From IMG/VR virus record IMGVR_UViG_3300032315_000979, positions 44,688-108,687 of that record: DNA of 64,000 nt; one strand, given 5' to 3'. The DNA is from a virus. How positions within the stretch are numbered: position 1 is the stretch's first letter; the number at the start of each line of letters is the position of its first letter. Positions 1,527 to 59,274 of this stretch are shown piece after piece. The notes under the pieces were generated by a model, which was given only the letters and a program-made list of their open reading frames with translations, did no database searches and was not told where the DNA came from. Made by a program: the position numbers and the translations under genes.

Positions 1527-2368
1527 TGGCTAAGAGAACAGAATGGGATTATATCGTTGAAGTAAAGATGCCTGTTGCGCTTAAAGGTGTTGAACCAGGT
1601 AAATTACATGCAAGTTTGCTCAGGGATATTCCAGGCGGTGGAAAGTTGTTTTACCTTGCGGCTGATGCATGGTTAGCAATGGTTGAGGCTGCAAAGGCTG
1701 ATGGTGTTGAGCTTAAGCCCACGAGCAGCGGCGATCTATATCGCAGTTATGAGAGCCAAAAGGCAGGATTTCTTACTCGCTACACTCTTGAGAATACAGG
1801 AACTGGATCAACAAAAACTTTTGAAGGTAAGACTTGGTACTTGAAGAAAGGTATGGCGATGCTTGCCACACCTGGTAAGTCACAGCACAACCTCGGCTTG
1901 GCAGTTGATATTGCCAATGCAAGTGATAAGAAAAGAATTAATTGGTTGATTGCTAATGTTGAAAAGTTTGGGTGGAGTTGGGAAGTAGTTCCTTCAGAGC
2001 CTTGGCATATCCGTTATGTTTGTGGTGACGCAGTACCTCAAGCAGTAAAAGATTATGTTGCTCGTAATCCAAAGCCAGGCAGTCCCTTTGGTTCAGTAGC
2101 AGAGCAAAAAGCTGCTGCTGAAGCAAAAGCAGCAATCCCTGCTCCAAACAAAATAGCTGCTGCATCTAAGCCAAACATTATAAAAGATAATAAAGGCTCT
2201 GCTGTAAAAGAAGCGCAAACTCTTCTTGTAAAACATGGTTTTGCTTGTAAGCCAGATGGTGATTTTGGACCTAAAACACAAGAGCTTGTAAAGCAATTTC
2301 AAAAATCAAAAGGTCTTTCAGTTACAGGTGATGTTGATCAAAACACTTGGGCTGCGTTGCTGGCATAA
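1526..2368 (+). CDS. endolysin: M15 (VanY-like) Zn peptidase plus C-terminal peptidoglycan-binding domain
   Basis: YRSYESQ, PGKSQHNLGLAVD (SxHxxGxAxD) and EPWH motifs; C-terminal DGDFGPKT..VKQFQ..GL.VTGDVDQNTW (PG_binding_1 pattern). Confidence 0.9.
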   Translation: MAKRTEWDYIVEVKMPVALKGVEPGKLHASLLRDIPGGGKLFYLAADAWLAMVEAAKADGVELKPTSSGDLYRSYESQKAGFLTRYTLENTGTGSTKTFEGKTWYLKKGMAMLATPGKSQHNLGLAVDIANASDKKRINWLIANVEKFGWSWEVVPSEPWHIRYVCGDAVPQAVKDYVARNPKPGSPFGSVAEQKAAAEAKAAIPAPNKIAAASKPNIIKDNKGSAVKEAQTLLVKHGFACKPDGDFGPKTQELVKQFQKSKGLSVTGDVDQNTWAALLA

Positions 2369-2400
2369 CCAATCTTTGATAATATCTTATAGGAGATATT

Positions 2401-2733
2401 ATGGCTGCAACTAGAAATATTACTATTTATCAAGGCGATACTTATGCTCATGAGCTACGCATTAGAAATAGTGCTAATGCTAATGTAACTATTACATCTA
2501 GAACTTACTCTGGTCAGATTAGAAAGAAAAGAAACTCTGACACGGCTGCAGCGACATTTACATCTGAAATCACAAACGGTGCTAATGGCATTGTTGTTAT
2601 GTCTTTGTCTGCTGCGGCTACAGCAAATATTGCTGCAGGGACATATGTTTATGATTTTCAAGAAACTAATGGCACCATTATCACCACACTGATTACTGGA
2701 ACAGTAACAGTAACTGGTGAGGTAAGTAGGTAA
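2401..2733 (+). CDS. virion structural / fibre-adaptor protein (BppU-N/LtfC-like)
   Basis: ITIYQGDT..., GTYVYDFQ pattern typical of these beta-sandwich adaptors; AGGAG RBS. Confidence 0.55.
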   Translation: MAATRNITIYQGDTYAHELRIRNSANANVTITSRTYSGQIRKKRNSDTAAATFTSEITNGANGIVVMSLSAAATANIAAGTYVYDFQETNGTIITTLITGTVTVTGEVSR

Positions 2734-3032
2734 TGGCTGGGGACATCACAACCGTTCAGGTAACTAGCGGTGACATAACATCCCTATCTGTATCTACAGA
2801 TGTCTCAAATATCACGGTTGCTTCTGAGATTACAGCAGTAACCGTACAAACGAATGATACAACAGTACTAACTCAATCCCCTGGAACTATAAATTTAGCA
2901 TCACTTTCCTTTGCTACATCAGATCCAGCCGATGTCGCTAGAACTGCAAGTGTTGGAGTAAGCAATTTAGCGGCTAGGGCAGATCATGTTCATAGTGCAG
3001 CAAATCTATTAATGGATGGAGGAAATTACTAA
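2733..3032 (+). CDS. small virion/fibre-associated protein
   Basis: Thr/Ser/Val-rich; ARADHVH motif common in fibre proteins; TAATG-coupled on both sides. Confidence 0.55.
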   Translation: MAGDITTVQVTSGDITSLSVSTDVSNITVASEITAVTVQTNDTTVLTQSPGTINLASLSFATSDPADVARTASVGVSNLAARADHVHSAANLLMDGGNY

Positions 3033-4222
3033 TGGCGAATACGCTGAGAATTAAAAGAAGGGCGACTGGCAGTGCTGGCGCACCTACAAGTTTGGAGAAT
3101 GCAGAATTAGCATTTAACGAAGTAGATAATATTCTTTACTACGGTAAGGGAACTGGTGGCGCAGGTGGATCTGCAACCACTGTTGAAGTAATTGGCGGTC
3201 TTGGTGCTTTTCTTGCTTTAACAACTGATCAAACAATTACTGGCAACAAGACATTTAATGGCACAACGATTGTCGCAACTCCAACTGCAAACGGTCACGC
3301 AGCTACTAAGCTTTATGTTGATAGTGCAGTTGCCAATGTCGCAACTTCGTTTACAGCGGCTGGCGATAGCGGCACAGTCACTATCTCTAGCGGAACTGAC
3401 ACTCTTACAATTGCTGGTGGAACTGGTTTAACATCGTCAGCAGCATCTGTTGATACGATTACACTTAATCTTGATAACACAGCAGTTACGGCAGCTAACT
3501 ACGGTGCGGCTGGATCTGTTGCAACATTCACTGTTGATGCACAAGGTCGTTTAACTGCTGCTGCAAACACAACTATTTCAATCACTGCTTCACAAGTTAG
3601 TGATAGAGCAACAAACCTTGTAACGGGTTTGACAGGAACTGCAAATGAAATTGCAGTATCAAACTCTGGTGTTGGTGCAGTAACACTTAGCCTTCCAGCT
3701 AATGTTACGATCAGTAATAACCTCACAGTTTCTGGGGATTTGATTGTTAATGGTAATACAACAACTCTTAACACAGCAACACTCGTTGTTGAGGATAAGA
3801 ACATTGTTCTTGCAAATGTTGAATCACCAACGGACACGACAGCTGATGGTGCTGGATTTACAATCAAAGGTGCAACAGATAAGACATTGAACTGGGTTGA
3901 TGCTACTGACGCTTGGACATCCTCTGAGCACTTCAATATTGTTTCTGGTAAGTCATTCTACATTGGGGGCTCGGCTGTACTTTCAAATACAACTTTGGCT
4001 TCAAGTGTCGTTACCTCAAGTCTTACATCTGTAGGTACAATTGGTACAGGTGTATGGCAAGGAACTGCTGTAGCAATTGCTTATGGCGGTACTGGCTCTG
4101 CAAATGCTTCTGATGCAAGAACTGCATTAGGTCTTGCAATCGGTTCAAATGTTCAAGCCTACAGCGCTCAGCTCACAGCACTTGCTGCGAACACTGCTAC
4201 AATTGATGGTGGTACTTTCTAA
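3032..4222 (+). CDS. tail/head fibre protein
   Basis: N-terminal IKRR...APTSL..AELAFNE; AATKLYVD, TVDAQGRLT, VEDKNIVL, GGTG..ARTALGL fibre motifs; ends DGGTF. Confidence 0.75.
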   Translation: MANTLRIKRRATGSAGAPTSLENAELAFNEVDNILYYGKGTGGAGGSATTVEVIGGLGAFLALTTDQTITGNKTFNGTTIVATPTANGHAATKLYVDSAVANVATSFTAAGDSGTVTISSGTDTLTIAGGTGLTSSAASVDTITLNLDNTAVTAANYGAAGSVATFTVDAQGRLTAAANTTISITASQVSDRATNLVTGLTGTANEIAVSNSGVGAVTLSLPANVTISNNLTVSGDLIVNGNTTTLNTATLVVEDKNIVLANVESPTDTTADGAGFTIKGATDKTLNWVDATDAWTSSEHFNIVSGKSFYIGGSAVLSNTTLASSVVTSSLTSVGTIGTGVWQGTAVAIAYGGTGSANASDARTALGLAIGSNVQAYSAQLTALAANTATIDGGTF

Positions 4223-11634: not shown

Positions 11635-14600
11635 ATGTCTGATGTTGATCTAATAATTAATGTACATACTAATGGCGTTAAGGATATTACTAACCTTAGT
11701 GCTGCCACTAGAGCCTTAGCCCTCAATCTAAGGGGTATTACAGTACCAATGAGCAAGCTTGATGCTCACAGCCGAGCTGTGAACAAAGCTCTTGGAATGA
11801 CAAACAGAAGCATGAATGATCATGCAAAGACTGCCAAGCAGATGATTGCAAATCAGAAGGCTCTGAGTGCAGAAACTAAGCGTGTTCAATCAAACATCAA
11901 GTCATACGCTATGGCTATTCAATCAGCTGGTGGTACAACCACAGCGTTTGGTAGAGAGCTGATCCAAAGCAGGAATGAATTAAAGCAATTTAGTTCAACC
12001 CTAAGAGGCTTGCGAATTAGAGCATTTGGCTCAGACCTTGGTTCAATATCACTAAAACTACAACGAATTGGTAAAGACGCACAGTTTGTTGGTAGAAGCT
12101 TGATGATTAACCTCACAGCTCCAATCCTTCTATTTGCAAGAATGGGCTTCCAGAGCTTGTTGAAGGTTGATGAGCAATTTGTAAGATTGACAAAGGTTCT
12201 TGAAGGCGTTGCTATGACAACCGATCAAGCAAACTCAAAGCTTAAAGATTATCTTGGTCCAGACAAGGAGAAGAGAGTCAAGCAAATGACCGACTCCTTT
12301 AGAGAACTAAATACCGCTTTGACCGAGCAAAGCGCAAGATTCGGTGTCGCAAAAGATTTAGTAGTTAGTCTGGCTGTTGATTTTGCAGAACTTGGTGTTA
12401 CTGCAAATGAAAATATTGTAGCACTTACTGAATTAGCATTAGCTGCAGAAAAATTGGGAGGAATGGATGCATCTGGTGCGCAAGATCTATCCTCAGCCTT
12501 GTTCTTTAATGCAACGAGAGCATACGAGGTTGCTGGTGCATTTGATGATGTAACAACAGCTGCTGAGCGTGAATCTAAAGCTATAGCGTCAGCAACAGTT
12601 CAGCTCAACATGTTCAACACAATTGAAAATGTCACCGCACTTTCATTGAAAGACCTTGCTGATTCACTACCTGAACTTGGAGGTATGGCGCTAAGTTTCG
12701 GACTATCAATGACAGAAGCAGCCGCTCTGCTTGCACCAATGAAGGCTGCTGGTTTTGATATTGGCGCATCTGCAAACTCAATTAAAGTATCTTTGCAAAG
12801 AGCAATTGTTCCAACTAAGCAAAATGTTGAACTACTAGCAAAACTTTCTAAGCAATATGGTGTTACTGGCAAATCTGGTAACGCATTTAGCGAATCAACA
12901 AAGACTGGTCTAACAGGACTTCAAGCTATTGTTGATATTTTTGGAAAAGTTGTTGAAGGTGGAAAAAACACTGAAGCTGGACTGAAACTGATGTCTGAAA
13001 TATTTGAAAAGCGTCAGGGTCCAAGAATGTATGTTGCTATTGAACAATTGAATCAGTTTGATGCTGCTTTGAAAAATGTTAATGCTAATCAATCACCAGA
13101 AAGATTGATGGCAGGTGTTGCTGAAGCATCCATTAGAGCCTTTAATAAACTTAACGGCACAGCACTCCCAGAAACAATAAGTCAGTTTAGTGATATTGGT
13201 GTTATCGCAAGAATTGCTACTGCTGAAGTTGGAGCATTAGTTGATGGGTTTAAAGGCAAAGGTGCAGGCGGTGGTATTACAGCAGCAGAAAAGAAAGGTG
13301 CTATGGAGGCACGAGATGCTGTAGCCAAGCTGATTAAAGAGAAGAAATTAAATGAAGATATTGACTTAATCAGCCAAGTTAAAACACAGGCTGGTCGTGC
13401 TCTGCTTGTTGAGCTTGCAGGTGCATCTGGCGCTGCGGATGTAGCAAACATGGAATTAGAGCAGTCATTGAAATCTCTTTCGGTTGCTACTCAGAGAATA
13501 AAGATTGCATTTAAAAACTTTGCTGCAGATGTGCTTAGAAATGTAGCTCCATCACTAAAGAAGTTGTCTGATACGATCAACAGTCTTTATCTAAAATGGC
13601 AAGCACTAAGTGACACAACAAGAGAAAGAATATCCAAATTAATTCTTGGCTTCCTCGGTTTCTTAGCAGTAATGGCACCAGTAATTCTTGCATTAGGAAC
13701 AATGCAATCATCTATCGGTGTGCTTGGAAGAACCGCTACATTCTTCTTACCGAAGCTAAAGAATTTTGAAGGTGGTCTTGTAGGAATTGCTGGTGGAGCA
13801 AAGAAAGCAACCACGGCAATGACAGATATGTATAACAGTTTCCTTGGCAAGAAACAACCACTTTCTATGCTTCCAAGTTTTGCACCTGCTGGCGGTACAG
13901 CATCATCAATGATTGGTATGCCAACAAGAGTTGGTCGCAACATCACACTCCCTGGCAATATTGCTCCAACCCCAACACCACTAACTGGACTTACAGGCGC
14001 TGCTAGAACAAGTGCCATCAATGCAAACAGAGCAGCGAGGCTTTCTCATGCAGCAACAGGAAGACTGGGTGTAGATCAGTATCTTAGAAATGAAGCAAGT
14101 ATGCTTTCTGCTAATAATATGCGACTTAATGCTCGTGGTCGTGTAATTGGTCCAAGGGGTGGTTTTGTTGGTGGTAACATTCTTGGAAAAATTTCTGAAG
14201 CATCAGTATTAAGAGAAGCCGCTCTTGCGGATTCTGGAATCTCTAGAACAATGTCTGGAGGCGCAAGGCTTGCTACAAAGAGAGGCTTTGTAGATGTTAC
14301 TGAAGACAGAGCATTAAGAATTGCTCGTGGTGGTATTGGTGGTGCAATAGCAAGAAGAACAGCGGCGCTTCCTGGTTTGGCTGATTCATTTACTTCAGCT
14401 ACTGGCGTAACAGGAAGAGGTTTTGCAAGAGGAATGCTACCTACCCGTGGAGGGATCGCAACTGGTGCAGGAAATGTTAGAGGTTTAGCGTCAGCTGCAT
14501 TTAACGCTGGTCCAGTTGCTGCTTACACAAAGTCGGTGCAAGGTGCTAAAGCTGCAGTTCAAGCAATGAAGATTGAACAGATGGCTTTGGGTGGTAGCGC

Positions 14601-17600
14601 TGGAAAAATTAGAACAATGTCAACTGCAATGACTGGTTTTATGAAAGCTACAAAGCTTGGAACGGTTGCTCTTAAGTTAATGAAGATTGCTTTGATATCA
14701 ACTGGTATTGGCGCAATCATGCTGGGCATCGGTGTTGCTGTTTATATCATTGTTAAAAACTTTAGTGCTTTTAAAGATAAAGCATCTAATGCAATACTAA
14801 GAGTCAAGAACGCATGGGCAATATTTAAAGAATCTATTGGGATGCTAATTCAGCCTTTTGTAGATTTGTTTTCAATAATCGGTGGTGGTTCTAAGAAAGG
14901 TGGAGATGCTGTTGGCGGTCTTGCAAGCGCATTTGATTTAGTTGGGAAAGTACTACAGAAAGTAGCTTCTTGGTTTAAGATGCTGGTTGAAAACTTTATT
15001 CAGCCATATCTGTACATGATTATTGATATTGTAATGTTTGTTGTTTCAATATTCCAAGGCAACTGGGGTAAAGCTTTTGATTACCTTGTTGCCGCTACCT
15101 CTGGTGCAGTAAAGATTGTTATTAAGTTAATTGCCGCTTTGCTAAAAGGAATGGTGTGGATCACCGCTGGTGGAATTAAGTTGATAATCGGATACTTTAC
15201 ACTAATTCCAAAAGCTGTTGCTAAAGTGTTTAGTTTCCTTGAAAGAATTCCAGGTGTTGGTGGAATATTTGGATGGATTGGTGACAGTATCAATTTCGTT
15301 ATTGACGGTCTTTATGGATTGGTTGATGCGGGTAAAAATGCTGCTAGTGGTGCCATTGATGCAGTAGCTAACGCAGCAACTGGATTGCTAGATAAGGGCG
15401 TATCTAAGGGTATCAGCTCAGCCGAGGGTAAAATCAGTAATGATACAAAGATTAAAGACGCAGCAGAAGAAACTGGTGAAGAAGCTGGCGAAATCATGGG
15501 TAACTCCTTTGGTGATGGCTTTGAAGAGTCTGACGCTACTGGAAAAATTGCAAAAGCCATTGAAGAGGGCATTGTTGATGCCATTCAGAAACTTCAAGAT
15601 TATGTTGCTGGAGAGATGGCAGATGCATTAACTAAGTTTGTAGATGCATCCGTTAAGGCTCTTGAAAAGCAAAAAACATCTGCTCTAAAAGTATTTGATG
15701 TCCAAATCAAAACACTTGGTAAGCTTGAAAAAGCAGAAGAATCGCTTACCAAGAAGAAAGAATACGAAAATAATAGAAGAAAGATTATTGACAACCAAGC
15801 TCTTAGTAATGAGCAGTTCCGTAGAAACTATGCATTGGCTGTTTATGAAGGTCGTGTTGATGACGCAAGAATGCTACAGCTTCAGCAGAGCGCTGATGAA
15901 AAAGGATTTAGTAGTGACCTTTTAACAATTGAGCAAGAAAGGTCAAAGGATCTCGCAAAAGAAAACCTTGATGCTCTCAAGGAAGCTATTAACGAAGCAA
16001 AAGATGCAGCTTCATTATTCTTTGAAGAATCAATTGCTAAGTTCCAAGAGTCTGCTGCTCTAATTACAAAGGTTGCACCAGTTACTGTTGAACAATATAC
16101 GGCGCAACTACAAGAACTTCAAACATTAACAGAAACAAACGCTACCAATATGAATACAACATTTGGTGCGATGTTTGAAATTTTTGCAACCACAATTGCA
16201 GACAAGATGCCAAACAAGGTTATTGGACCATTTGCAACAAATCTTGACGAACTTGTATTAGTAGCAAAAGAAAAATTTGGTCTTGGATCTGATAAGAGTG
16301 AAAACACTGTAATTGGTATTACTATCGGAATGCTCGCTGGAATGGGAGTACAGTTTGGTGAAGGAAAGCAATTAGTAATTGATTCGTTCGGTGTAATAAC
16401 ATCTGGTCTCGCTCAAAACTTTACGGATATGAAGACCAAGTTCTTGGATGAGGTTAAGAGCGATTTCATTACAAACTTTAAGAAGGCACTGGATGAAGCA
16501 GAGCCAACAAAGGTTTTCAATCAAGCAATCATTGATGGAAACCTAAGCATCCTTAGAAGCTTCCAGAACATGGTGGATCTAAACCCAGCACTGATGGAGA
16601 AGTTAAGAAAGAGTCTTGATCCAGCAATTAATAAATACCTTGAACTAAAAGCAGCCGCAGATGCAGCAAAAGATGCAGCAGGAGCTGCAGCAGACGCAGC
16701 AGCAGGCGGTGGGGGCGGTGGTGGTGGAGGTGGAGGCACTGGTTCCCAACCAGGACCAGGAACACCTGCAGGTGGAAGAGCAGATGCATTTGCAAGAAAT
16801 AATGAACTCAGAGCTGCCAGAAATCTAAGAGCACTTACATATCAAGAATTTATTGGAAATTACAAGGGCTTCAAGAAGGGTGGAATAATTCCATCAAGAA
16901 CGCAAAATCAAAATCAAGGGTATCCAGAGGGCTTCATCCCAGCTCCAACACAAGAAGGTGTACCAACGCTTCTTCATGGTGGAGAATACATTCTTAATGC
17001 GAAGGCGGTTTCAAGAATCGGTGTAGGTGCTTTGAATAAGATGAATAATAACCTTATTCCAAAATTCCTTAAGGGTGGTCAGGTTCCAGGTGGAAAGAAA
17101 GGTACAGCTTCAAACACAAGAGGAACGGCAGATCGTCTTGAACAGAAAGTTACCAATAAAACATCTGCTTCGCCAAGTTCATTAAAAGCTCCAATAGACT
17201 TGTCAAAAATTCAAGGCGTTACTTTAAAACCGACTACACCTGTTAGTCCAAAAATTCCAGGAATTGCAACACCTGGTCACACCTATAGCTCCTCAGAGAT
17301 AAAAAAACTTACAATGCGACCAAACACTTATTTGGTTCCAGCCCCATCTTTCACATCCCCTGGAACTAAACAAGCGCCTAAAGAGTTCTTCCAAGTTGCA
17401 ACAAGACAAGAAGCGCTTTCTTATGCACAAATAAAAATGCAAAATGATGCTAAGGCAGCACAAAGAGCAGAGCAAGAAAAGTGGACAACATGGGAAAGAT
17501 TTATTGGTCAAAACACAGTTAATGGGGTCTCAACAATAGGTGGTCCATATAAACAATCGGGTATTGCAAGTGCAATTGAAAAATTCCCACTCGCAGGACT

Positions 17601-20600
17601 TCTTGTAAAAGATCTTGCTGTTGAATCAGCTAAGTCATTTGGAAGAACATTTTCTGGAAGCAATGCTCGTCAGTATTTAAACTTCGGCTCGGAAGGTCCA
17701 GGAATAACAGGTCGTTTGTTGATGGGCGCAGAGGATATTCTTAATATCATCAGCGCAGCTCAAATAACAAAGCCGTTTACAGAGCCTCTCAGAATGCCTC
17801 TTACTGCGGTTTTGAAGAAAAGAGGACTTGCTGAGGCATCAAGTGTTTGGCAAGAAGCAACTGGAACTAGTTTTATAAGTCAACTTGAAACAATGGCTGG
17901 TGGTAATACATTTAAGGGTCTTCAAACTCAGGGTCGCATATTAACACAACTTGAAGCTAGAACATGGGATGAAGGTCTTTTCACGCTAGATAAGTTTATT
18001 AAAGAACAAGCTCGTATAAAATTGATGCAAGGCGCTGCAATTGATACAACCCTTGCTTCAACCGCTGCTTCAACCGCTGGGGTAAGAGGTGTTGGTTCAA
18101 ATATACTTAGCAGTAATCCAAGAATGCTGTCATTGAATGCTGGTAAGCAAATTAAGATTTCTATGGGTGCTAGAGGTGTAGATCTTTCTAACATGATTGA
18201 ATCTGGAGTCATAGATTCCACCCTTGCTAGTGGAAGTGGTTACATTAGTAATCAAAAATTCTTGTCTGAGCTTGGAATAATTAATCCAGAATACAGTAGT
18301 TATAACTCTACCAGAAGTAGGATGCAAACACCTGATGGTGTACTAAAAGGAAATATTAACTATGGATATGCAAGATTAGCTGATGATTTTGCAACAGCAG
18401 CTAATTATAGAGAGTTCCACATGAATATTGGTGAGGCTGGGGCGCTTTATATGAATGAAACTGGTGCTTGGAGAAGAAATATACAAGGTGAGCTTGACAA
18501 GATTCTTGGTGGTGCAATTATTAATTTGAAACCAAGTGCTGCTATGACATACACTCAGGGCGACAGTTATAACATGTTCTTAAGAAGTTTACTTACTAGC
18601 AATAATCCAGCACAAAATCTACCACAATACCTTGGTGATATTCCTTTAGTTGCTGAATATGGTGATAAATTAATTGCTGATGCTGCTGGTAACTATACTG
18701 AAGTTCAATTCCCATCAATCCCATTTGATGGTTCAGCAATTGAATCCATAATTCTAAGCAGAGAAAATTTAATGCAATATTATTCACCACCTGGCACAGT
18801 AAATCAAAGTGGTTGGGGTAGTCAATATTTATCAATTGCTGGACCACAAGAGCAATTAGTAATGCAAAGAGAGCTTGCAAAGCAATTAGCAGCTCGTGGT
18901 ATTGATGTTAAAACTGGTTTAGATGATTTAATATTCAATGAGAACTATACTAATGCAACTAGAACAGTTAAATTTGATCCAGTTCCTCTCCATCAAATTC
19001 CGCAAGATGAATTTGACAAGATGCTACTCAGTATTACACAGAAGTTAAGAGCAGATCAAGGCTTGCCATCAATACCACAAGATGTTATCACATCTGACAC
19101 ATTTAATATTAAATCAATACAAGACGGAATCAAGGGGTTCATTGCTAACTATAGAACAGCAAACTCATTACTATCAATGCCAACAGAGAGTGTTAGCGCT
19201 GCATTGAATACATCTATTTTTGAAAGTGCTGGTGGAAGACTTGCAGGAGGCTTAAATCGTGTTAGAGGAGCTTTTTTTGGACCTAGATCTGGCAGTTCAG
19301 TTAGTCGTTTAGAAAGTTTAGATATCACACCAGATGCTGCTTTCAAAGATTCTCGTGGACTTTATAATGCTGGAAATATTGGTGCGTATATACAAAAAAT
19401 GTATAGTTATGGATTTAGTTCAACAACTAGGTCATCAATATTGGAGGACTTAGTTGGAAGTGCAGACATGTCCCTTAATGTTGCTAGAGGCTATACATCA
19501 CCTGCATACTATGCATCACGACCATTCTTTCCAGAAACAGGTAATGTTCCAGGAGTAGGTATGGCTCGGTCTTTTATTGGTGATCCTAATGGAATATCTA
19601 CTGGAATTGGTTTGACTAATCTTCAGGTTGCAGCAAGAGAATACATTTTAAAAAATATTGATCTTGCTGCATCAGAAAACGCTAATCTACTAAGTGATTT
19701 ATTGTCAATTATTCAGGGCGATATGTCTGGAAGTGCTTTAGATAGTGGTTCAATTCAAGATTTTGCTTATGGAATTAGAAATAACAGCAATATTAATACA
19801 TCTACTTTTAATAACATGACACCATCTTTGTGGATTCAAACTAGACATGCTATGAGTGATATTTCACTAGGTCAATTAGGTTGGAATACACCAGAGAATT
19901 TATCATTATTTGATGATGTTTATCAAAAATATTTTGAATCATACATAAATACTGCAAATACATTAAGTGCCATTGGGTTTTCAGAATATGGAGATGAATT
20001 CCCACTACAAGGAATATCTTTCACAGATTTCTCTAGAAATTTTAAAGTTTCATTAGGCAAAGTTGCCGAGATGGATCCTAATGACATGATTGTTCAATTA
20101 CTACAGGCTGGAGATACGGCAGGAGCTGCATTTGAACTTAAAGCTCGTGTATTTCGTAATATAGCTAGTGAATTTGATATTCCTGGCAATGAAATAACAT
20201 CATATGATATATTGGGCGGTTATTCAGATACTGGTCGTCTTAACCTTAGAAGGACAATTAGTCCTGCTCATGAAAAGAGTTGGTTCTTTAAACTAAAAGA
20301 TAATGCATCTATCTTAGATGAAGTTGGGAATCAAATACCTAACGGTTACTCTCTATCGGCACTAGTAAATTCTAGAATTGGTAATATGCCTACATCTATC
20401 TTCAGCAGAGATGCTGCTTCAGTGGTAGGAAGACGAAATAATGGTACATACACTGGAGTATTTAATGAGTTTATGTCAAATTCTATGGCAGCAAGCGGTG
20501 CTGCTCCTAATTCTTCAAATTTTTATGATGAGATTAACGAAATAAGAGATAGGTTGGGAACTTTTCATCCCCTTAATGTATCTAGAGATGTAATGCCACT

Positions 20601-22665
20601 ATCTTCTGGCATAGAGCAATACCTTACTGGTTCAACTCGCCGCCCTATTGACACAGGTGCTGGATGGAAACTACAACCTTCATCATGGTCATGGGATGAT
20701 GAAATAAAATTAACACAATTGATGGAGAATGCTTCTGGAAGCGGCTTCGGAATGTCTGCTAAGTTTGGTAGAGGTATTCCTATACCAAATGAATTCTCAG
20801 ATTTGGTAAAAGAAATGTGGATTGCTCATTCCACAGCTGGTTCGCCGCAAATAGATAATCAAGCAATTAGAAATGTTTGGGAAAATTTCTTATCAACTAA
20901 AGATCAATTATTTACTTCTGGAAACAGTTACGATCCAATTGGATTTAATTCATACATGAAAGATAAGCAAAGTGGTTTGTACCGAAAAGGAATATATCAA
21001 TCTGGAAGTCCATTTGATTTAGGCGATCTTGCAAATCTTGGATATCAAAACCCATTAGTTTTTGATAATGCAAATTGGATTGATTCAAGGTCAAGTACTC
21101 CAATAATTATGCCAAGGGTTGGTAGTCAAACAAAATTATATGGTGCTTTATATCAACTAGCAGGTCGTATTATTCCAGAGATACAGATGCAAGCTGCAAA
21201 AACTATGTCACTAGATGCATTGAGTAATAGTTCAATTGCAAATTTAACACCGCAAGCTTTACTTGAAAGTCAAGATTTTGCAAGATATTTAGGTGCAAAA
21301 ATTCCTTCATCAACTGTTTATGAATCAAATCCAGATATTGCAAATATTTTGGCAAATATGACCAATCTAAAAGGGTATAAGACAGGGAATCTCTTCTCTC
21401 TTGAAACACCACTGCATCCAGACGAGTATAACTGGTGGATAAAGTTATTTAAAAATGCAGAAAACAAAAATCTTAATTATGATCTGTTTCTTCCAGATGA
21501 CCCTAGCTTGTCATTAGATTATGGTGGTCTACCATTTGGTCAAGTTGGTCCAGGTGGTCCTTCTACCATGAATCCACAGAGTGTTTTAAAATCTAAAACT
21601 GTCCCTTATATGCAGAGGGGGCAAAATGCTGCTGACTGGTTAAAGTCACTCACCCCAGACATAAAAAATGATCGTATTGCATCTGTACGAGTTAGAAAAA
21701 CATTTTTTGACAAGTTAATTAAATGGTATGAAGCACCTGACGGTGTAAATCCTAACGATACTGGTTACTATTCTGATTATTTTGAAAAATTAACATCAGG
21801 AGGGGGTGCGGCTAAGGTAGAATTTACTGACCTTGTTGATTTGGCAAAGCAATCTAATTCATCATTTCCAACACCTGAATTAAGCTATGCTGGTAGATTT
21901 CCAAGCTCCACTTCTTATTTACAAAATTTGATAGCAGCTAGGAATTTACAATATGCTAGATTTATAAATACCGATACAGTACTTCAGTTTTCAGACAATG
22001 TTTCTGAATTTGCACAAGAAATTGCTGCGCAGTTTGCTACAATAGCCCCTCTTGCCCCAGGAGGCAGTAATTCTTTTAATCCAATAGATGATATATCAGC
22101 TTCTGCTGAACAAAGAACAGCGCTTGAGGCTGCAGAATGGATTACTAGAGGAGGATTCATGTCTCCTTCAGCAATTCTAGAAGAATTTGTCATGGCTCAA
22201 ATGAAAGGTTCAACTCTGGCTTCAGCAATGCAAAGTACAACATCAGATAAATCTTTGTTAGGTGTTAATAAATTTATTAAGAAATACGGAAAAATGAAAA
22301 TTAAAGGCTTTAAGACTGGTGGTTATGTTCCTGGAGCTCCATCAACTGCAATCCCTGCAATCTTGCATGGTGGTGAATATGTAATCAACGCAGATGCTGT
22401 AAGAAACATGGGTGTAAGAACAATGCAAAGCATCAATCAGTCAAAGTTTAAAGCACCTTCTGGAGCTCCATCATACGCAGGCGGTGGACAGACAACCAAT
22501 GTGTCCACAGTCAATATCAATGTAGACACCTTTATTGGGGAAGAAGAATGGTTTAAAGGAATGATGAAGGATTACAATGTTAATGTACTCCCAAGACAAC
22601 AAAAAGCAGCTGGTTTAGAATCAAGAACATTTACAAGTTATAATGGAATACAGGGTGGTTTCTAA
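11635..22665 (+). CDS. tape measure protein, 3676 aa, with a large C-proximal cargo insertion
   Basis: Follows the chaperone pair; helical Ala-rich N-terminal region, hydrophobic segments, coiled coil; two HGGEY modules. Confidence 0.9.
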   Translation: MSDVDLIINVHTNGVKDITNLSAATRALALNLRGITVPMSKLDAHSRAVNKALGMTNRSMNDHAKTAKQMIANQKALSAETKRVQSNIKSYAMAIQSAGGTTTAFGRELIQSRNELKQFSSTLRGLRIRAFGSDLGSISLKLQRIGKDAQFVGRSLMINLTAPILLFARMGFQSLLKVDEQFVRLTKVLEGVAMTTDQANSKLKDYLGPDKEKRVKQMTDSFRELNTALTEQSARFGVAKDLVVSLAVDFAELGVTANENIVALTELALAAEKLGGMDASGAQDLSSALFFNATRAYEVAGAFDDVTTAAERESKAIASATVQLNMFNTIENVTALSLKDLADSLPELGGMALSFGLSMTEAAALLAPMKAAGFDIGASANSIKVSLQRAIVPTKQNVELLAKLSKQYGVTGKSGNAFSESTKTGLTGLQAIVDIFGKVVEGGKNTEAGLKLMSEIFEKRQGPRMYVAIEQLNQFDAALKNVNANQSPERLMAGVAEASIRAFNKLNGTALPETISQFSDIGVIARIATAEVGALVDGFKGKGAGGGITAAEKKGAMEARDAVAKLIKEKKLNEDIDLISQVKTQAGRALLVELAGASGAADVANMELEQSLKSLSVATQRIKIAFKNFAADVLRNVAPSLKKLSDTINSLYLKWQALSDTTRERISKLILGFLGFLAVMAPVILALGTMQSSIGVLGRTATFFLPKLKNFEGGLVGIAGGAKKATTAMTDMYNSFLGKKQPLSMLPSFAPAGGTASSMIGMPTRVGRNITLPGNIAPTPTPLTGLTGAARTSAINANRAARLSHAATGRLGVDQYLRNEASMLSANNMRLNARGRVIGPRGGFVGGNILGKISEASVLREAALADSGISRTMSGGARLATKRGFVDVTEDRALRIARGGIGGAIARRTAALPGLADSFTSATGVTGRGFARGMLPTRGGIATGAGNVRGLASAAFNAGPVAAYTKSVQGAKAAVQAMKIEQMALGGSAGKIRTMSTAMTGFMKATKLGTVALKLMKIALISTGIGAIMLGIGVAVYIIVKNFSAFKDKASNAILRVKNAWAIFKESIGMLIQPFVDLFSIIGGGSKKGGDAVGGLASAFDLVGKVLQKVASWFKMLVENFIQPYLYMIIDIVMFVVSIFQGNWGKAFDYLVAATSGAVKIVIKLIAALLKGMVWITAGGIKLIIGYFTLIPKAVAKVFSFLERIPGVGGIFGWIGDSINFVIDGLYGLVDAGKNAASGAIDAVANAATGLLDKGVSKGISSAEGKISNDTKIKDAAEETGEEAGEIMGNSFGDGFEESDATGKIAKAIEEGIVDAIQKLQDYVAGEMADALTKFVDASVKALEKQKTSALKVFDVQIKTLGKLEKAEESLTKKKEYENNRRKIIDNQALSNEQFRRNYALAVYEGRVDDARMLQLQQSADEKGFSSDLLTIEQERSKDLAKENLDALKEAINEAKDAASLFFEESIAKFQESAALITKVAPVTVEQYTAQLQELQTLTETNATNMNTTFGAMFEIFATTIADKMPNKVIGPFATNLDELVLVAKEKFGLGSDKSENTVIGITIGMLAGMGVQFGEGKQLVIDSFGVITSGLAQNFTDMKTKFLDEVKSDFITNFKKALDEAEPTKVFNQAIIDGNLSILRSFQNMVDLNPALMEKLRKSLDPAINKYLELKAAADAAKDAAGAAADAAAGGGGGGGGGGGTGSQPGPGTPAGGRADAFARNNELRAARNLRALTYQEFIGNYKGFKKGGIIPSRTQNQNQGYPEGFIPAPTQEGVPTLLHGGEYILNAKAVSRIGVGALNKMNNNLIPKFLKGGQVPGGKKGTASNTRGTADRLEQKVTNKTSASPSSLKAPIDLSKIQGVTLKPTTPVSPKIPGIATPGHTYSSSEIKKLTMRPNTYLVPAPSFTSPGTKQAPKEFFQVATRQEALSYAQIKMQNDAKAAQRAEQEKWTTWERFIGQNTVNGVSTIGGPYKQSGIASAIEKFPLAGLLVKDLAVESAKSFGRTFSGSNARQYLNFGSEGPGITGRLLMGAEDILNIISAAQITKPFTEPLRMPLTAVLKKRGLAEASSVWQEATGTSFISQLETMAGGNTFKGLQTQGRILTQLEARTWDEGLFTLDKFIKEQARIKLMQGAAIDTTLASTAASTAGVRGVGSNILSSNPRMLSLNAGKQIKISMGARGVDLSNMIESGVIDSTLASGSGYISNQKFLSELGIINPEYSSYNSTRSRMQTPDGVLKGNINYGYARLADDFATAANYREFHMNIGEAGALYMNETGAWRRNIQGELDKILGGAIINLKPSAAMTYTQGDSYNMFLRSLLTSNNPAQNLPQYLGDIPLVAEYGDKLIADAAGNYTEVQFPSIPFDGSAIESIILSRENLMQYYSPPGTVNQSGWGSQYLSIAGPQEQLVMQRELAKQLAARGIDVKTGLDDLIFNENYTNATRTVKFDPVPLHQIPQDEFDKMLLSITQKLRADQGLPSIPQDVITSDTFNIKSIQDGIKGFIANYRTANSLLSMPTESVSAALNTSIFESAGGRLAGGLNRVRGAFFGPRSGSSVSRLESLDITPDAAFKDSRGLYNAGNIGAYIQKMYSYGFSSTTRSSILEDLVGSADMSLNVARGYTSPAYYASRPFFPETGNVPGVGMARSFIGDPNGISTGIGLTNLQVAAREYILKNIDLAASENANLLSDLLSIIQGDMSGSALDSGSIQDFAYGIRNNSNINTSTFNNMTPSLWIQTRHAMSDISLGQLGWNTPENLSLFDDVYQKYFESYINTANTLSAIGFSEYGDEFPLQGISFTDFSRNFKVSLGKVAEMDPNDMIVQLLQAGDTAGAAFELKARVFRNIASEFDIPGNEITSYDILGGYSDTGRLNLRRTISPAHEKSWFFKLKDNASILDEVGNQIPNGYSLSALVNSRIGNMPTSIFSRDAASVVGRRNNGTYTGVFNEFMSNSMAASGAAPNSSNFYDEINEIRDRLGTFHPLNVSRDVMPLSSGIEQYLTGSTRRPIDTGAGWKLQPSSWSWDDEIKLTQLMENASGSGFGMSAKFGRGIPIPNEFSDLVKEMWIAHSTAGSPQIDNQAIRNVWENFLSTKDQLFTSGNSYDPIGFNSYMKDKQSGLYRKGIYQSGSPFDLGDLANLGYQNPLVFDNANWIDSRSSTPIIMPRVGSQTKLYGALYQLAGRIIPEIQMQAAKTMSLDALSNSSIANLTPQALLESQDFARYLGAKIPSSTVYESNPDIANILANMTNLKGYKTGNLFSLETPLHPDEYNWWIKLFKNAENKNLNYDLFLPDDPSLSLDYGGLPFGQVGPGGPSTMNPQSVLKSKTVPYMQRGQNAADWLKSLTPDIKNDRIASVRVRKTFFDKLIKWYEAPDGVNPNDTGYYSDYFEKLTSGGGAAKVEFTDLVDLAKQSNSSFPTPELSYAGRFPSSTSYLQNLIAARNLQYARFINTDTVLQFSDNVSEFAQEIAAQFATIAPLAPGGSNSFNPIDDISASAEQRTALEAAEWITRGGFMSPSAILEEFVMAQMKGSTLASAMQSTTSDKSLLGVNKFIKKYGKMKIKGFKTGGYVPGAPSTAIPAILHGGEYVINADAVRNMGVRTMQSINQSKFKAPSGAPSYAGGGQTTNVSTVNINVDTFIGEEEWFKGMMKDYNVNVLPRQQKAAGLESRTFTSYNGIQGGF

Positions 22666-23088
22666 ATGGTAGCTACAATACAAAATCAACAATCTGGTAT
22701 CACACATTTGGTAGTTATTAATGGGGAAGAAATTACCGAGCATGGTCGCCTATTCTCAAGCTCAATGGCAACATCTGCGTCAAATGTTGAATTATTGAAC
22801 GGGAATAAAAAGAGGTTTATTAAGAACGCTAAGAATGTATACACCCTTTCTTTTCAATATCTCCCAGACCATCCAGAAAGAACAATTGATGGTCGTAAGG
22901 CAAGAAACTATCTGCTATCAGTTGCCAAAACATCTTCATCTGCAAGTTTATCAATCACCTTAGATCCAGCAGAGCCATCTTATAATACTGTTGTCTATGT
23001 TGATTCATACAGCGAAACACTAGTGAGAAGAGATATTCCCAACCAATGTGCCTACTACAATGTTGAGATTTCTCTTAAAGAGAAATAG
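22666..23088 (+). CDS. distal tail (Dit-like) protein
   Basis: 140 aa directly after TMP; ends YNVEISLKE. Confidence 0.6.
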   Translation: MVATIQNQQSGITHLVVINGEEITEHGRLFSSSMATSASNVELLNGNKKRFIKNAKNVYTLSFQYLPDHPERTIDGRKARNYLLSVAKTSSSASLSITLDPAEPSYNTVVYVDSYSETLVRRDIPNQCAYYNVEISLKEK

Positions 23089-32826: not shown

Positions 32827-33109
32827 TTGGATAGAGCAAGCTGTATGTGCAAAAGATAAACGATCAATTGCTTGGCTATCCTATGACATTAAAGACATAG
32901 AATACGCCAAGCAAGGTTGTTCTTTATGCAAAGTCAGAAAAGAATGCTTTGTAAATGCATGGCAGAATAATCCGTATGTCGGTGTAAATGCTGGTATATC
33001 AGAGTATGATTTCCTAATTCTTACATGGAAGGAGGCGAATAAGCCTAATGGAAGCAACTGGTCAAGAACTAATAAACTTCTTCAAGGAATCTTGCAAAAA
33101 ATCAAATAA
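32810..33109 (+). CDS. whiB: divergent WhiB-family Fe-S transcription factor
   Basis: W..QAVC...AKQGCSLCKVRKEC...GVNAG (variant of GVWGG). Confidence 0.7.
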   Translation: MKVQSDWIEQAVCAKDKRSIAWLSYDIKDIEYAKQGCSLCKVRKECFVNAWQNNPYVGVNAGISEYDFLILTWKEANKPNGSNWSRTNKLLQGILQKIK

Positions 33110-44586: not shown

Positions 44587-44903
44587 TGCCAGATATTATT
44601 GTTGACCCTGAAGTTCTTGCAGCGCAGATGGGTGATAAGTCAGAAGAGTTTATTAAATGCTTGGGTATTGTCCAAGACATTATTGAGAATCCACAAGATT
44701 ATATTGGTATGCAAGCTATTAAGTATGCAAACATCTTGGCTGGGTATAGAACGCTTATGATTGTGAAATCACAAGCCTTTAAAAGAAGATCTACTATTAT
44801 GAGCGAACAAGATAAGTTTGTTAATGATATTTGGAAAACAATGTACGAAGCACTAACTGAAAACATCAATGCCTTAAAACTGGCAGCAAAAGGAGTAAAT
44901 TAA
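44586..44903 (+). CDS. helical hypothetical protein
   Basis: 105 aa; conserved-looking position before the Cas4-like nuclease. Confidence 0.65.
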   Translation: MPDIIVDPEVLAAQMGDKSEEFIKCLGIVQDIIENPQDYIGMQAIKYANILAGYRTLMIVKSQAFKRRSTIMSEQDKFVNDIWKTMYEALTENINALKLAAKGVN

Positions 44904-58997: not shown

Positions 58998-59274
58998 GCA
59001 TTGGAGTGAGAAAGCAAATTGTAGAACAATTAAAGGAATTGATTTCTTTGCCGAAGATATTAATGCAATACAAAGGGCTAAGAAAGTTTGTGAAAGATGT
59101 GCTGTTGCAGCAGAATGTTTGAATCAATCAATTAAAGCTGATGAAATATATGGCATTTGGGGTGGGCTTTCGCAAAGAGAAAGACGAAAGTATCATCGGT
59201 TATTTGAAAATAAAATGGAGATTAGTCAAGCGAAAGAGATTGTGGTAAAACATGGCAACAAAGTACTTAGATAG
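58987..59274 (+). CDS. whiB: WhiB-family Fe-S transcription factor
   Basis: W.EKANC..DFF..AKKVCERCAVAAEC..YGIWGGLSQRERR. Confidence 0.92.
   Translation: MTNEHWSEKANCRTIKGIDFFAEDINAIQRAKKVCERCAVAAECLNQSIKADEIYGIWGGLSQRERRKYHRLFENKMEISQAKEIVVKHGNKVLR

Follow-up and report, generated by a model that had tools for sequence, protein, structure and literature searches.

The 64,000-nucleotide (nt) stretch analysed here (the window; positions 44,688 to 108,687 of the IMG/VR record IMGVR_UViG_3300032315_000979) takes up the final 64 kb of a viral record that is 108,687 bp long and carries direct terminal repeats, and it belongs to an uncultured 108.7-kb siphovirus. Its gene for the tape measure protein (TMP), located at 11635..22665 on the + strand like all of the parts of the protein described below, is a single open reading frame (ORF; P0001) of 3,676 amino acids (aa) with no stop. 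Sequence comparison indicates that this TMP contains a slot between two end-modules, and that the slot is a recombination hot spot: at least eight unrelated insert families occupy it, and they have been exchanged, both wholesale and in part, between phages with near-identical cores and hubs. The protein would consist of four parts: a core of 1,745 aa that serves as ruler and channel; the end-module usual at the C-terminus in this family, with an FxxGGxVPG joint behind it; a 1.7-kaa insert in the conserved slot; and a second, paralogous end-module with a 74-aa C-terminal tail. We lean towards the reading that the core and the end-module with its joint carry the slot insert as an optional virion-borne accessory load, which would likely act at the envelope or in the first infection step. 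As far as we could find, the literature describes no slot that is defined by duplicated modules, has an empty allele, and takes many large inserts unrelated to one another.

The slot is bounded by the two end-modules and their joints. Copy 1 of the motif (FKKGGIIPS...PTLLHGGEYILNAKAVSRIGVGALNKMNN) was found at aa 1746-1805, beginning at nt 16870, and copy 2 (FKTGGYVPG...PAILHGGEYVINADAVRNMGVRTMQSINQ) at aa 3559-3602 (nt 22309-22440); the short FLKGGQVPG lies at aa 1811 (nt 17065), just behind copy 1. These positions agree with the initial annotation of the window, in which the motif block had been reported to occur twice with a third short copy, and the ~5.2 kb between the copies to be free of stops. 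The regions of the two copies share 35% identity over 57 aa (E = 1e-11, pairwise BLASTP), and no other copy of the end-module is present in the 108.7-kb genome. At the DNA level, no repeat longer than a 14-nt GGxVPG-coding stretch was found between the modules, that is, none to drive recent recombination. Because there is no DNA repeat beyond 14 nt, the module duplication appears to be old, with both paralogues kept. All of the nine full-length relatives (3,259-3,755 aa; the close set) likewise retain both modules.

The first module as a whole (aa 1746-1810, 16870..17064; FKKGG...LHGGEYILNAKAV...) is invariant in 10 aligned TMPs. It is followed by the left joint (aa 1811-1840, 17065..17154; FLKGGQVPGGKKGTASNTRG.ADRLE), which resembles the start of a second module and is common to insert families A, B, D, and E. 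The right joint and copy 2 together span aa 3541-3602 (22255..22440; ...KIKGFKTGGYVPG...PAILHGGEYVINADAV...) and coincide with the right breakpoint of every insert family. The C-terminal tail (aa 3603-3676, 22441..22662; ...VDTFIGEEEWFKGMMKDYN...), presumed by analogy to be the hub-docking end, is conserved, with an identity of 88-97% in the close relatives that drops to 43-54% in the most distant. In pattern form, both joints are kept in every insert family, the left one as ...NNNLIPKF[LA]KGG.VPGGK[KR]G.ASNTRGSADRLE and the right one as [FY]K.GGYVPG.PS...PA[IL]LHGGEYV. Similar elements were observed in three long single-module TMPs (L046, L064, and L074), in whose C-terminal 260 aa a tandem array of 3-4 Y-x-x-GG-M-x-K-G units leads up to the module; the [FY]xxGG joint is thus itself a repeat element of this TMP superfamily. 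It was also observed that a run of 11 glycines (aa 1691-1701, nt 16705-16737) lies in an Ala/Gly/Pro-rich linker just ahead of copy 1.

For the comparison of the slot across relatives, a wider set was collected in addition to the close set: the C-terminal 136 aa, used as a query, retrieved 105 relatives in IMG/VR, and 80 loci were kept. In the related loci, module copy 1 is always preceded by ~1,790-1,890 aa, copy 2 lies ~100 aa ahead of the C-terminus, and the spacing between the two modules ranges from 702 to 1,884 aa. The module is positioned 96-157 aa from the C-end in these loci, as the initial annotation had stated for TMPs at large; in Nitrincola phage 1M3-16 its distance to the end is 93 aa, and it matches positions 949-1020 of the 1,051-position phrog_3336. 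The inserts measure 650-1,830 aa where the slot is filled, and the slot is empty in some phages. By BLAST, the stretches between the modules fall into eight families. In profile-profile comparison (hhalign), these families share only the first 30-120 residues, corresponding to the left joint, and a few shuffled domains (235 aa between families E and H; 283 and 175 aa between G and H). Family A, to which the insert of this phage belongs, had nothing in common with the other families beyond ~60 residues in the same comparison. The core (aa 1-1745, 11635..16869), which is the Ala/Gly-rich ruler part by composition, is 50-96% identical across the family regardless of the insert behind it. Alignment of the related TMPs thus showed what had been anticipated, namely conserved flanks around a variable-length, largely non-homologous middle.

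Pairs of closely related phages show the exchange most directly. The TMP of one relative (L021) matches the present one at 95% identity in aa 191-1865 and at 84% in aa 3555-3676, but not in the intervening part; its insert of ~1,710 aa is unrelated to that of this phage, while its hub protein and 354-aa tail protein are 98% and 93% identical, respectively, to those of this phage. In another relative (L044), the two modules stand in tandem with nothing between them, which is the empty slot. In a third (L038), the core is 95% identical over 1,931 aa, and an insert of ~700 aa is located exactly between the modules. On a tree of the core, built from the 600 residues preceding module 1, the insert families are interleaved (9 labels require 13 changes), and the inserts differ between sister tips: L007/L026, L008/L013, and L021 beside P0001/P0006. 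The retention of both copies, the empty slot, and the varied inserts bear out the earlier proposal that a duplicated module brackets a payload-like region. The limits given for that region were right in part: its right edge is fixed at the module 2 joint (aa ~3540-3559), but the variable part begins not at module 1 but at left breakpoints scattered over aa ~1818-2158.

The insert of this phage is itself, as far as windowed identities indicate, a mosaic of at least two sub-cassettes. Its proximal part (aa 1841-2148, 17155..18078) consists of a Pro/Thr-rich linker and then a conserved block; this part keeps ~64-94% identity even in the P0006-P0010 lineage. Sub-cassette I (aa ~2149-2600, 18079..19434) and sub-cassette II (aa ~2601-3540, 19435..22254) are, respectively, 18-31% and 14-32% identical to the corresponding parts of that lineage. 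Along the whole TMP, the identity to P0006-P0010 is 64-100% (mostly 80-100%) up to aa ~2100, falls to 14-32% over aa ~2200-3500, and returns to 92-97% in the last 76 residues. The protein P0002 has a diverged core (34-82%), yet its identity is 82-98% beginning at aa 2600. The opposite holds for P0003 and P0005: over aa ~2200-2500 they are ~90-96% and 85-90% identical, respectively, whereas in sub-cassette II the identity is 39-61%. P0004 is without aa 2177-2451. At the boundary of these two independently exchanged sub-cassettes, the sequence FFPETGNVPGVG (aa 2631-2640, window 19525-19554; GNVPG at aa 2636) was observed; it resembles the FxxGGxVPG joint, and its GN.PG.G is conserved in both divergent lineages.

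Substitution rates point to separate histories of insert and core. Among the relatives with DNA, the ratio of nonsynonymous to synonymous substitution rates (dN/dS) is 0.42-0.73 in the inserts, 0.11-0.30 in the cores, and 0-0.2 in module 2 and the tail. Moreover, the insert dS is often far above the core dS (e.g., 0.83 versus 0.05 in L005/L007), which suggests that the insert and the core differ in history and not simply in their speed of change. The inserts, that of this phage included, are under purifying selection that is weaker but real. Across the lineages that are only 14-32% identical, 31% of Trp, 17% of Pro, and 14% of Phe residues are invariant, while the values for Lys, Asp, and Ile are ~2%. 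This enrichment is the pattern of folded cores.

The composition and the predicted structure of the insert were examined next to those of the core. The shift of composition noticed earlier is real: in the core, the fraction of Ala is mostly 0.11-0.19 and that of aromatics 0.02-0.08, while after aa ~2250 they are 0.05-0.10 and 0.09-0.13, respectively. The reported richness in adenine and thymine toward the end of the gene is also present, since the guanine-cytosine (GC) fraction is 0.33-0.38 at 19.3-22.3 kb, but this equals the flanking genes and the genome average and does not look foreign; the GC outlier is the Ala/Gly-rich core, which is enriched (0.39-0.46), and not the insert. In the AlphaFold2 model of aa 2600-3676, aa 2659-2889 (19609..20301) form a confidently predicted compact domain, mostly helical with beta-hairpins, next to several middling stretches. 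The predicted local distance difference test score (pLDDT) of the domain is mostly 80-92; averaged in blocks, it is mostly 72-92 with dips to 55-62. Over aa 2600-3540, 46% helix and 6% strand were predicted, and the longest helix has 28 residues. The insert therefore is predicted to hold at least one foldable domain, and the middle, as far as it could be predicted, is not an extended helix, in line with the initial annotation. The dissection of the region into domains by AlphaFold and Foldseek, which that annotation had proposed, succeeded as far as this one compact domain, and it gave no meaningful fold match.

Several points weigh against the reading of the insert as an accessory load. One is that the mean pLDDT is 35 for aa 1811-2650, where the model, built on a shallow alignment, was unusable, and 51.5 for aa 2600-3676; with confidence this low over most of the insert, large parts of it could be disordered or ruler-like. 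Another is that the relaxed dN/dS would equally be expected of a mere spacer. A third is that no function-giving match was obtained for the insert in Pfam, PHROGs, NCBIfam, PDB sequences, Foldseek, VIA-align, or the ESM Atlas. The last is that the delivery and the site of action of the insert are argued from analogy.

The first two of these points would fit a plain extension of the ruler, in which the insert is a fast-evolving filler that lengthens the TMP and the tail, and the slot polymorphism reflects selection on tail length. Two distant single-module TMP ORFs, L086 (G001:C1:74500-89800) and L087 (G002:C1:46000-59200), are relevant here. They encode 4,648 and 3,986 aa, respectively, and their cores carry Ala/charged-rich expansions of ruler-like composition; at 0.15 nm per residue, the tails would be 600-700 nm. 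In L086, ~1,000 aa (aa 3401-4400) are very rich in aromatic and hydrophobic residues. Since the TMPs of distant relatives reach such ruler-like lengths, very long tails are plausible in this group. In addition, deletion of 114 aa of an embedded hydrolase motif from the TMP of phage TM4 makes the tail ~20 nm shorter (PMC1796659), so an embedded motif counts in tail length. These two observations work against the view in the initial annotation that part of the protein is not ruler. A ruler role is also favoured by the topology of the chain: with its two termini fixed at the two extremes of the tube, the insert would have to occupy lumen. Nevertheless, we regard the extension of the ruler as quite unlikely. 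In composition, the insert differs from the ruler expansions of L086 and L087, having few Ala and charged residues but many aromatics, Asn, and Ser; the short longest helix, the one compact domain, and the conserved Trp, Pro, and Phe positions are not those of a filler; and other insert families contain a transglycosylase domain. Furthermore, a filler needs no complete replacement of its sequence between phages with 95%-identical cores. A non-ruler insert is also favoured by the constant position of module 1 and by the existence of empty and filled forms with near-identical cores, together with the signals of composition and fold.

The searches for matches to the insert as an accessory load can be described as follows. 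When the whole TMP and six overlapping pieces of the insert were searched against Pfam with E values up to 10 allowed, nothing above noise came out (HasA, Med12, and GHL13); PHROGs gave only TMP families for the TMP, and NCBIfam gave nothing. No match was found by the PDB sequence search, either with the single insert sequence or with the A1 profile, nor was a usable match found in the ESM Atlas for the 1,409-aa insert or a 241-aa domain. For the compact domain at aa 2659-2889, no fold match was significant. When aa 2360-3558 were compared with 1.84 billion representative proteins, five matches were obtained, all of which were TMP-sized or fragments, and the comparison of aa 1841-2640 with shorter proteins gave one match, a 249-aa fragment on a 913-bp contig. 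The insert thus appears to be confined to this TMP lineage. Two smaller proteins were observed, P0012 (910 aa) and P0013 (224 aa), which are fragments or separate genes; P0013 is 40% identical to the insert at aa ~2270-2470 (window 18430-19140) and has an Ala/Glu-rich end. A DUF3626 or SopF-like ADP-ribosyltransferase (PF12294) was considered as a candidate at aa ~2170-2430, and profile searches did not support it: no Pfam match to PF12294 was found at E up to 10 in aa 2150-2460, in aa 2266-2502, or in P0013, and sub-cassette I as a whole gave no Pfam match, DUF3626 included. SopF was absent from the PDB-sequence profile search at E up to 10, and the model of this region is of low confidence.

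The domains that were recognised concern the cell wall. In this TMP, overlapping pieces searched at E up to 10 gave no cell-wall hydrolase domain (Rpf-like PF06737, SLT, NlpC/P60, or M23). The inserts of L040 and L042, which represent two other insert families, begin with an Rpf-like transglycosylase, PF06737 or phrog_29757; the PF06737 scores are 27.5 bits (cut-off, 27) and 22.2 bits, respectively.

These results bear on the possibility that the insert is a cytoplasmic effector cassette, that is, a takeover or anti-defence protein that is excised at the FxxGG joints and enters the cell before the DNA. The polymorphism and the cassette exchange resemble those of conflict systems, the FxxGGxVPG joint is conserved at both sides of every insert family, and gp96 of Thermus phage P23-45 is an example of a TMP-fused enzyme able to act inside the cell (PMC10770324). 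However, no enzyme, toxin, or protease domain was found in this insert or in six of the other seven families, the ADP-ribosyltransferase candidate was unsupported, and the recognised domains in this TMP family act only on the cell wall. The genes on the 3′ side of the TMP gene are tail-tip genes, and the alleles of the small adjoining gene do not track the insert family. The effector function that the initial annotation had proposed for the payload was accordingly not upheld for this insert, in which no enzyme or toxin domain was found, and we consider such a cassette unlikely.

Where the accessory load would reside in the virion can be judged from mycobacteriophage Douge, whose 1,699-aa TMP fills a 269.6-nm tube and ends in 42 residues that trimerize as a plug in the hub (PMC13033339). 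By this analogy, the C-terminal tail of the present TMP would dock in the tail-tip hub, with the N-terminus at the head end. With the tail docked in the hub, the insert would ride in the distal tail lumen and, of the bulk of the TMP, would leave first at infection; it would most likely act at the host envelope or in the very first infection step, like the cell-wall hydrolase motifs in actinophage TMPs. The same topology bears on a further alternative, in which the insert serves host recognition and extends out of the tail tip, forming a central fibre or an element for receptor binding. Mosaic hyperdivergence, with 14-32% identity where the flanks exceed 90%, is typical of receptor-binding proteins. 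Since the conserved tail downstream of the insert should sit in the hub lumen (PMC13033339), however, the insert should be topologically inside the tube. Moreover, separate hub and fibre genes follow the TMP gene, and they are 98% identical while the insert is swapped. A role in host recognition is thus very improbable.

TMPs are textbook molecular rulers, and embedded domains in them are known (TM4, T5-type, and P23-45). To our knowledge, such domains are known only as small motifs or one-off fusions. The mycobacteriophage TMPs (motif 3 of TM4 gp17 and the Rpf-like motif 1 of Barnyard; PMC1796659) are alike in that in-frame domains of actinophage TMPs are dispensable and not of the ruler type, and the Rpf-like PF06737 kind also starts the inserts of L040 and L042. 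They differ in that the motifs are of ~100 aa and scattered, with no defined slot (PMC1796659), whereas here inserts of 650-1,830 aa lie between paralogous end-modules, with an empty allele and wholesale swaps, and the insert of this phage is without a hydrolase signature. Gp96 of Thermus phage P23-45, a 5,002-aa TMP with an N-terminal virion RNA polymerase (PMC10770324), is also a giant TMP, one that takes a folded, functional non-ruler protein into the host; in gp96 the fused part is at the N-terminus, belongs to one conserved kind, and has a known activity, whereas the present insert is internal, near the C-terminus, polymorphic, and without sequence similarity to it. In gp45 of Corynebacterium phage P1201 (L083, 2152-8535), a 2,127-aa TMP, an internal module was found at aa ~1282-1340 (46% identity, E = 6e-4). 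This module reads FxxGG...E-Y-V-I-N-A-K-A-V and is followed by a YATGG joint of the [FY]xxGG form, a 'GRPYVLGGD' stretch, and an SLT transglycosylase at aa 1637-1699; unlike the present TMP, gp45 has neither a second module copy nor the conserved tail at its C-terminus. P1201 gp45 could serve as a laboratory model for a module followed by accessory domains. The Douge TMP (PMC13033339), with 1,699 aa, is close in length to the 1,745-aa core here and is a model for the position of the C-terminal tail; it is without an insert or a duplicated module, and no sequence match between it and the present TMP was found.

Another comparison can be made with the polymorphic toxin or MuF-toxin systems and the polyvalent proteins (PMC5576092, PMC5512222, PMC3482391), which also combine a conserved virion-targeting part with a recombining variable part, and which are presumed to be delivered together with the DNA. 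A variable region that recombines behind a conserved delivery part, as in systems of the polymorphic-toxin type, was found here. The carrier is, however, a TMP, and toxin or enzyme domains, a processing peptidase, and a co-varying immunity-like gene were not detected in this phage: Pfam, NCBIfam, and the gene after the TMP gene revealed no toxin domain or cognate co-varying immunity gene, and Pfam or NCBIfam revealed no polyvalent-protein set, i.e., several effector enzyme domains with a processing metallopeptidase. TMPs are not mentioned in the survey of polyvalent proteins (Iyer et al. 2017).

A wider generalization is possible, though we hold it doubtful: the TMP slot of freshwater actinophages, arisen by end-module duplication, may be a general recombining platform, by which any of many proteins of 70-200 kDa are loaded in the distal lumen and expelled before the DNA, with the FxxGGxVPG joints perhaps serving for their release. 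If this were the case, the inserts would hold a stock of new activities for breaching the envelope or taking over the host, and part of a TMP could be packed in the tube without a ruler role. Likewise, if the inserts are functional loads, at least eight large families without known relatives would act at the first moment of infection. The relatives also provide a natural near-isogenic series, in which the same core and hub are combined with a slot that is empty or holds ~700 aa or ~1,800 aa of unrelated sequence. This series bears on whether non-helical TMP sequence counts toward tail length and on the maximum protein size that a siphovirus tail carries and expels. Designs for loading proteins into phage tails could also be modelled on the slot.

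The product of the ORF at 11635-22665 is a TMP by its profile matches, gene order, and hydrophobic segments. Its N-terminal part (aa 15-1082) matches phrog_5448 in the PHROGs profile search (E = 3.6e-27), and four further PHROG TMP families match the protein (phrog_10030, phrog_1293, phrog_4704, and phrog_28); the Pfam match to PF10145 (E = 2.5e-7, 31.2 bits) is slightly under the cut-off of 33.2. Membrane-type hydrophobic segments (Kyte-Doolittle ≥ 1.6) occur at aa 665-698, 1011-1047, and 1121-1192; all of them belong to the core, and the insert has none. On the 5′ side are a gene resembling that of the tail tube (phrog_2175 / phrog_885) and two small ORFs, and genes of 140, 354, 1,302 (minor tail or fibre), and 524 aa (fibre) on the 3′ side, giving the tail gene order of tube and chaperone-like genes, TMP, and then hub and fibre.

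The host is probably an actinobacterium, because the genome has two WhiB-family genes (PF02467; window 59002-59190 and 32828-33007, with 70.1 and 34.7 bits, respectively) and the nearest cultured TMP matches are in actinophages. Matches in cultured-phage TMPs were found only in Rhodococcus, Gordonia, and Corynebacterium phages and in one Nitrincola phage, and among 50,697 phage records no match was obtained with the TMP gene (megablast) or with the insert (tblastn).

Finally, the 140-aa gene directly after the TMP gene (window 22666-23088) has two unrelated alleles among the close relatives. When it was considered as an immunity-like partner, the two alleles did not track the insert family in the close relatives compared. 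The gene is 80% identical in L007 and L010 and is replaced in L005, L026, L021, and others, and it has ~25-29% similarity to the C-terminal part of the adjoining 354-aa gene.

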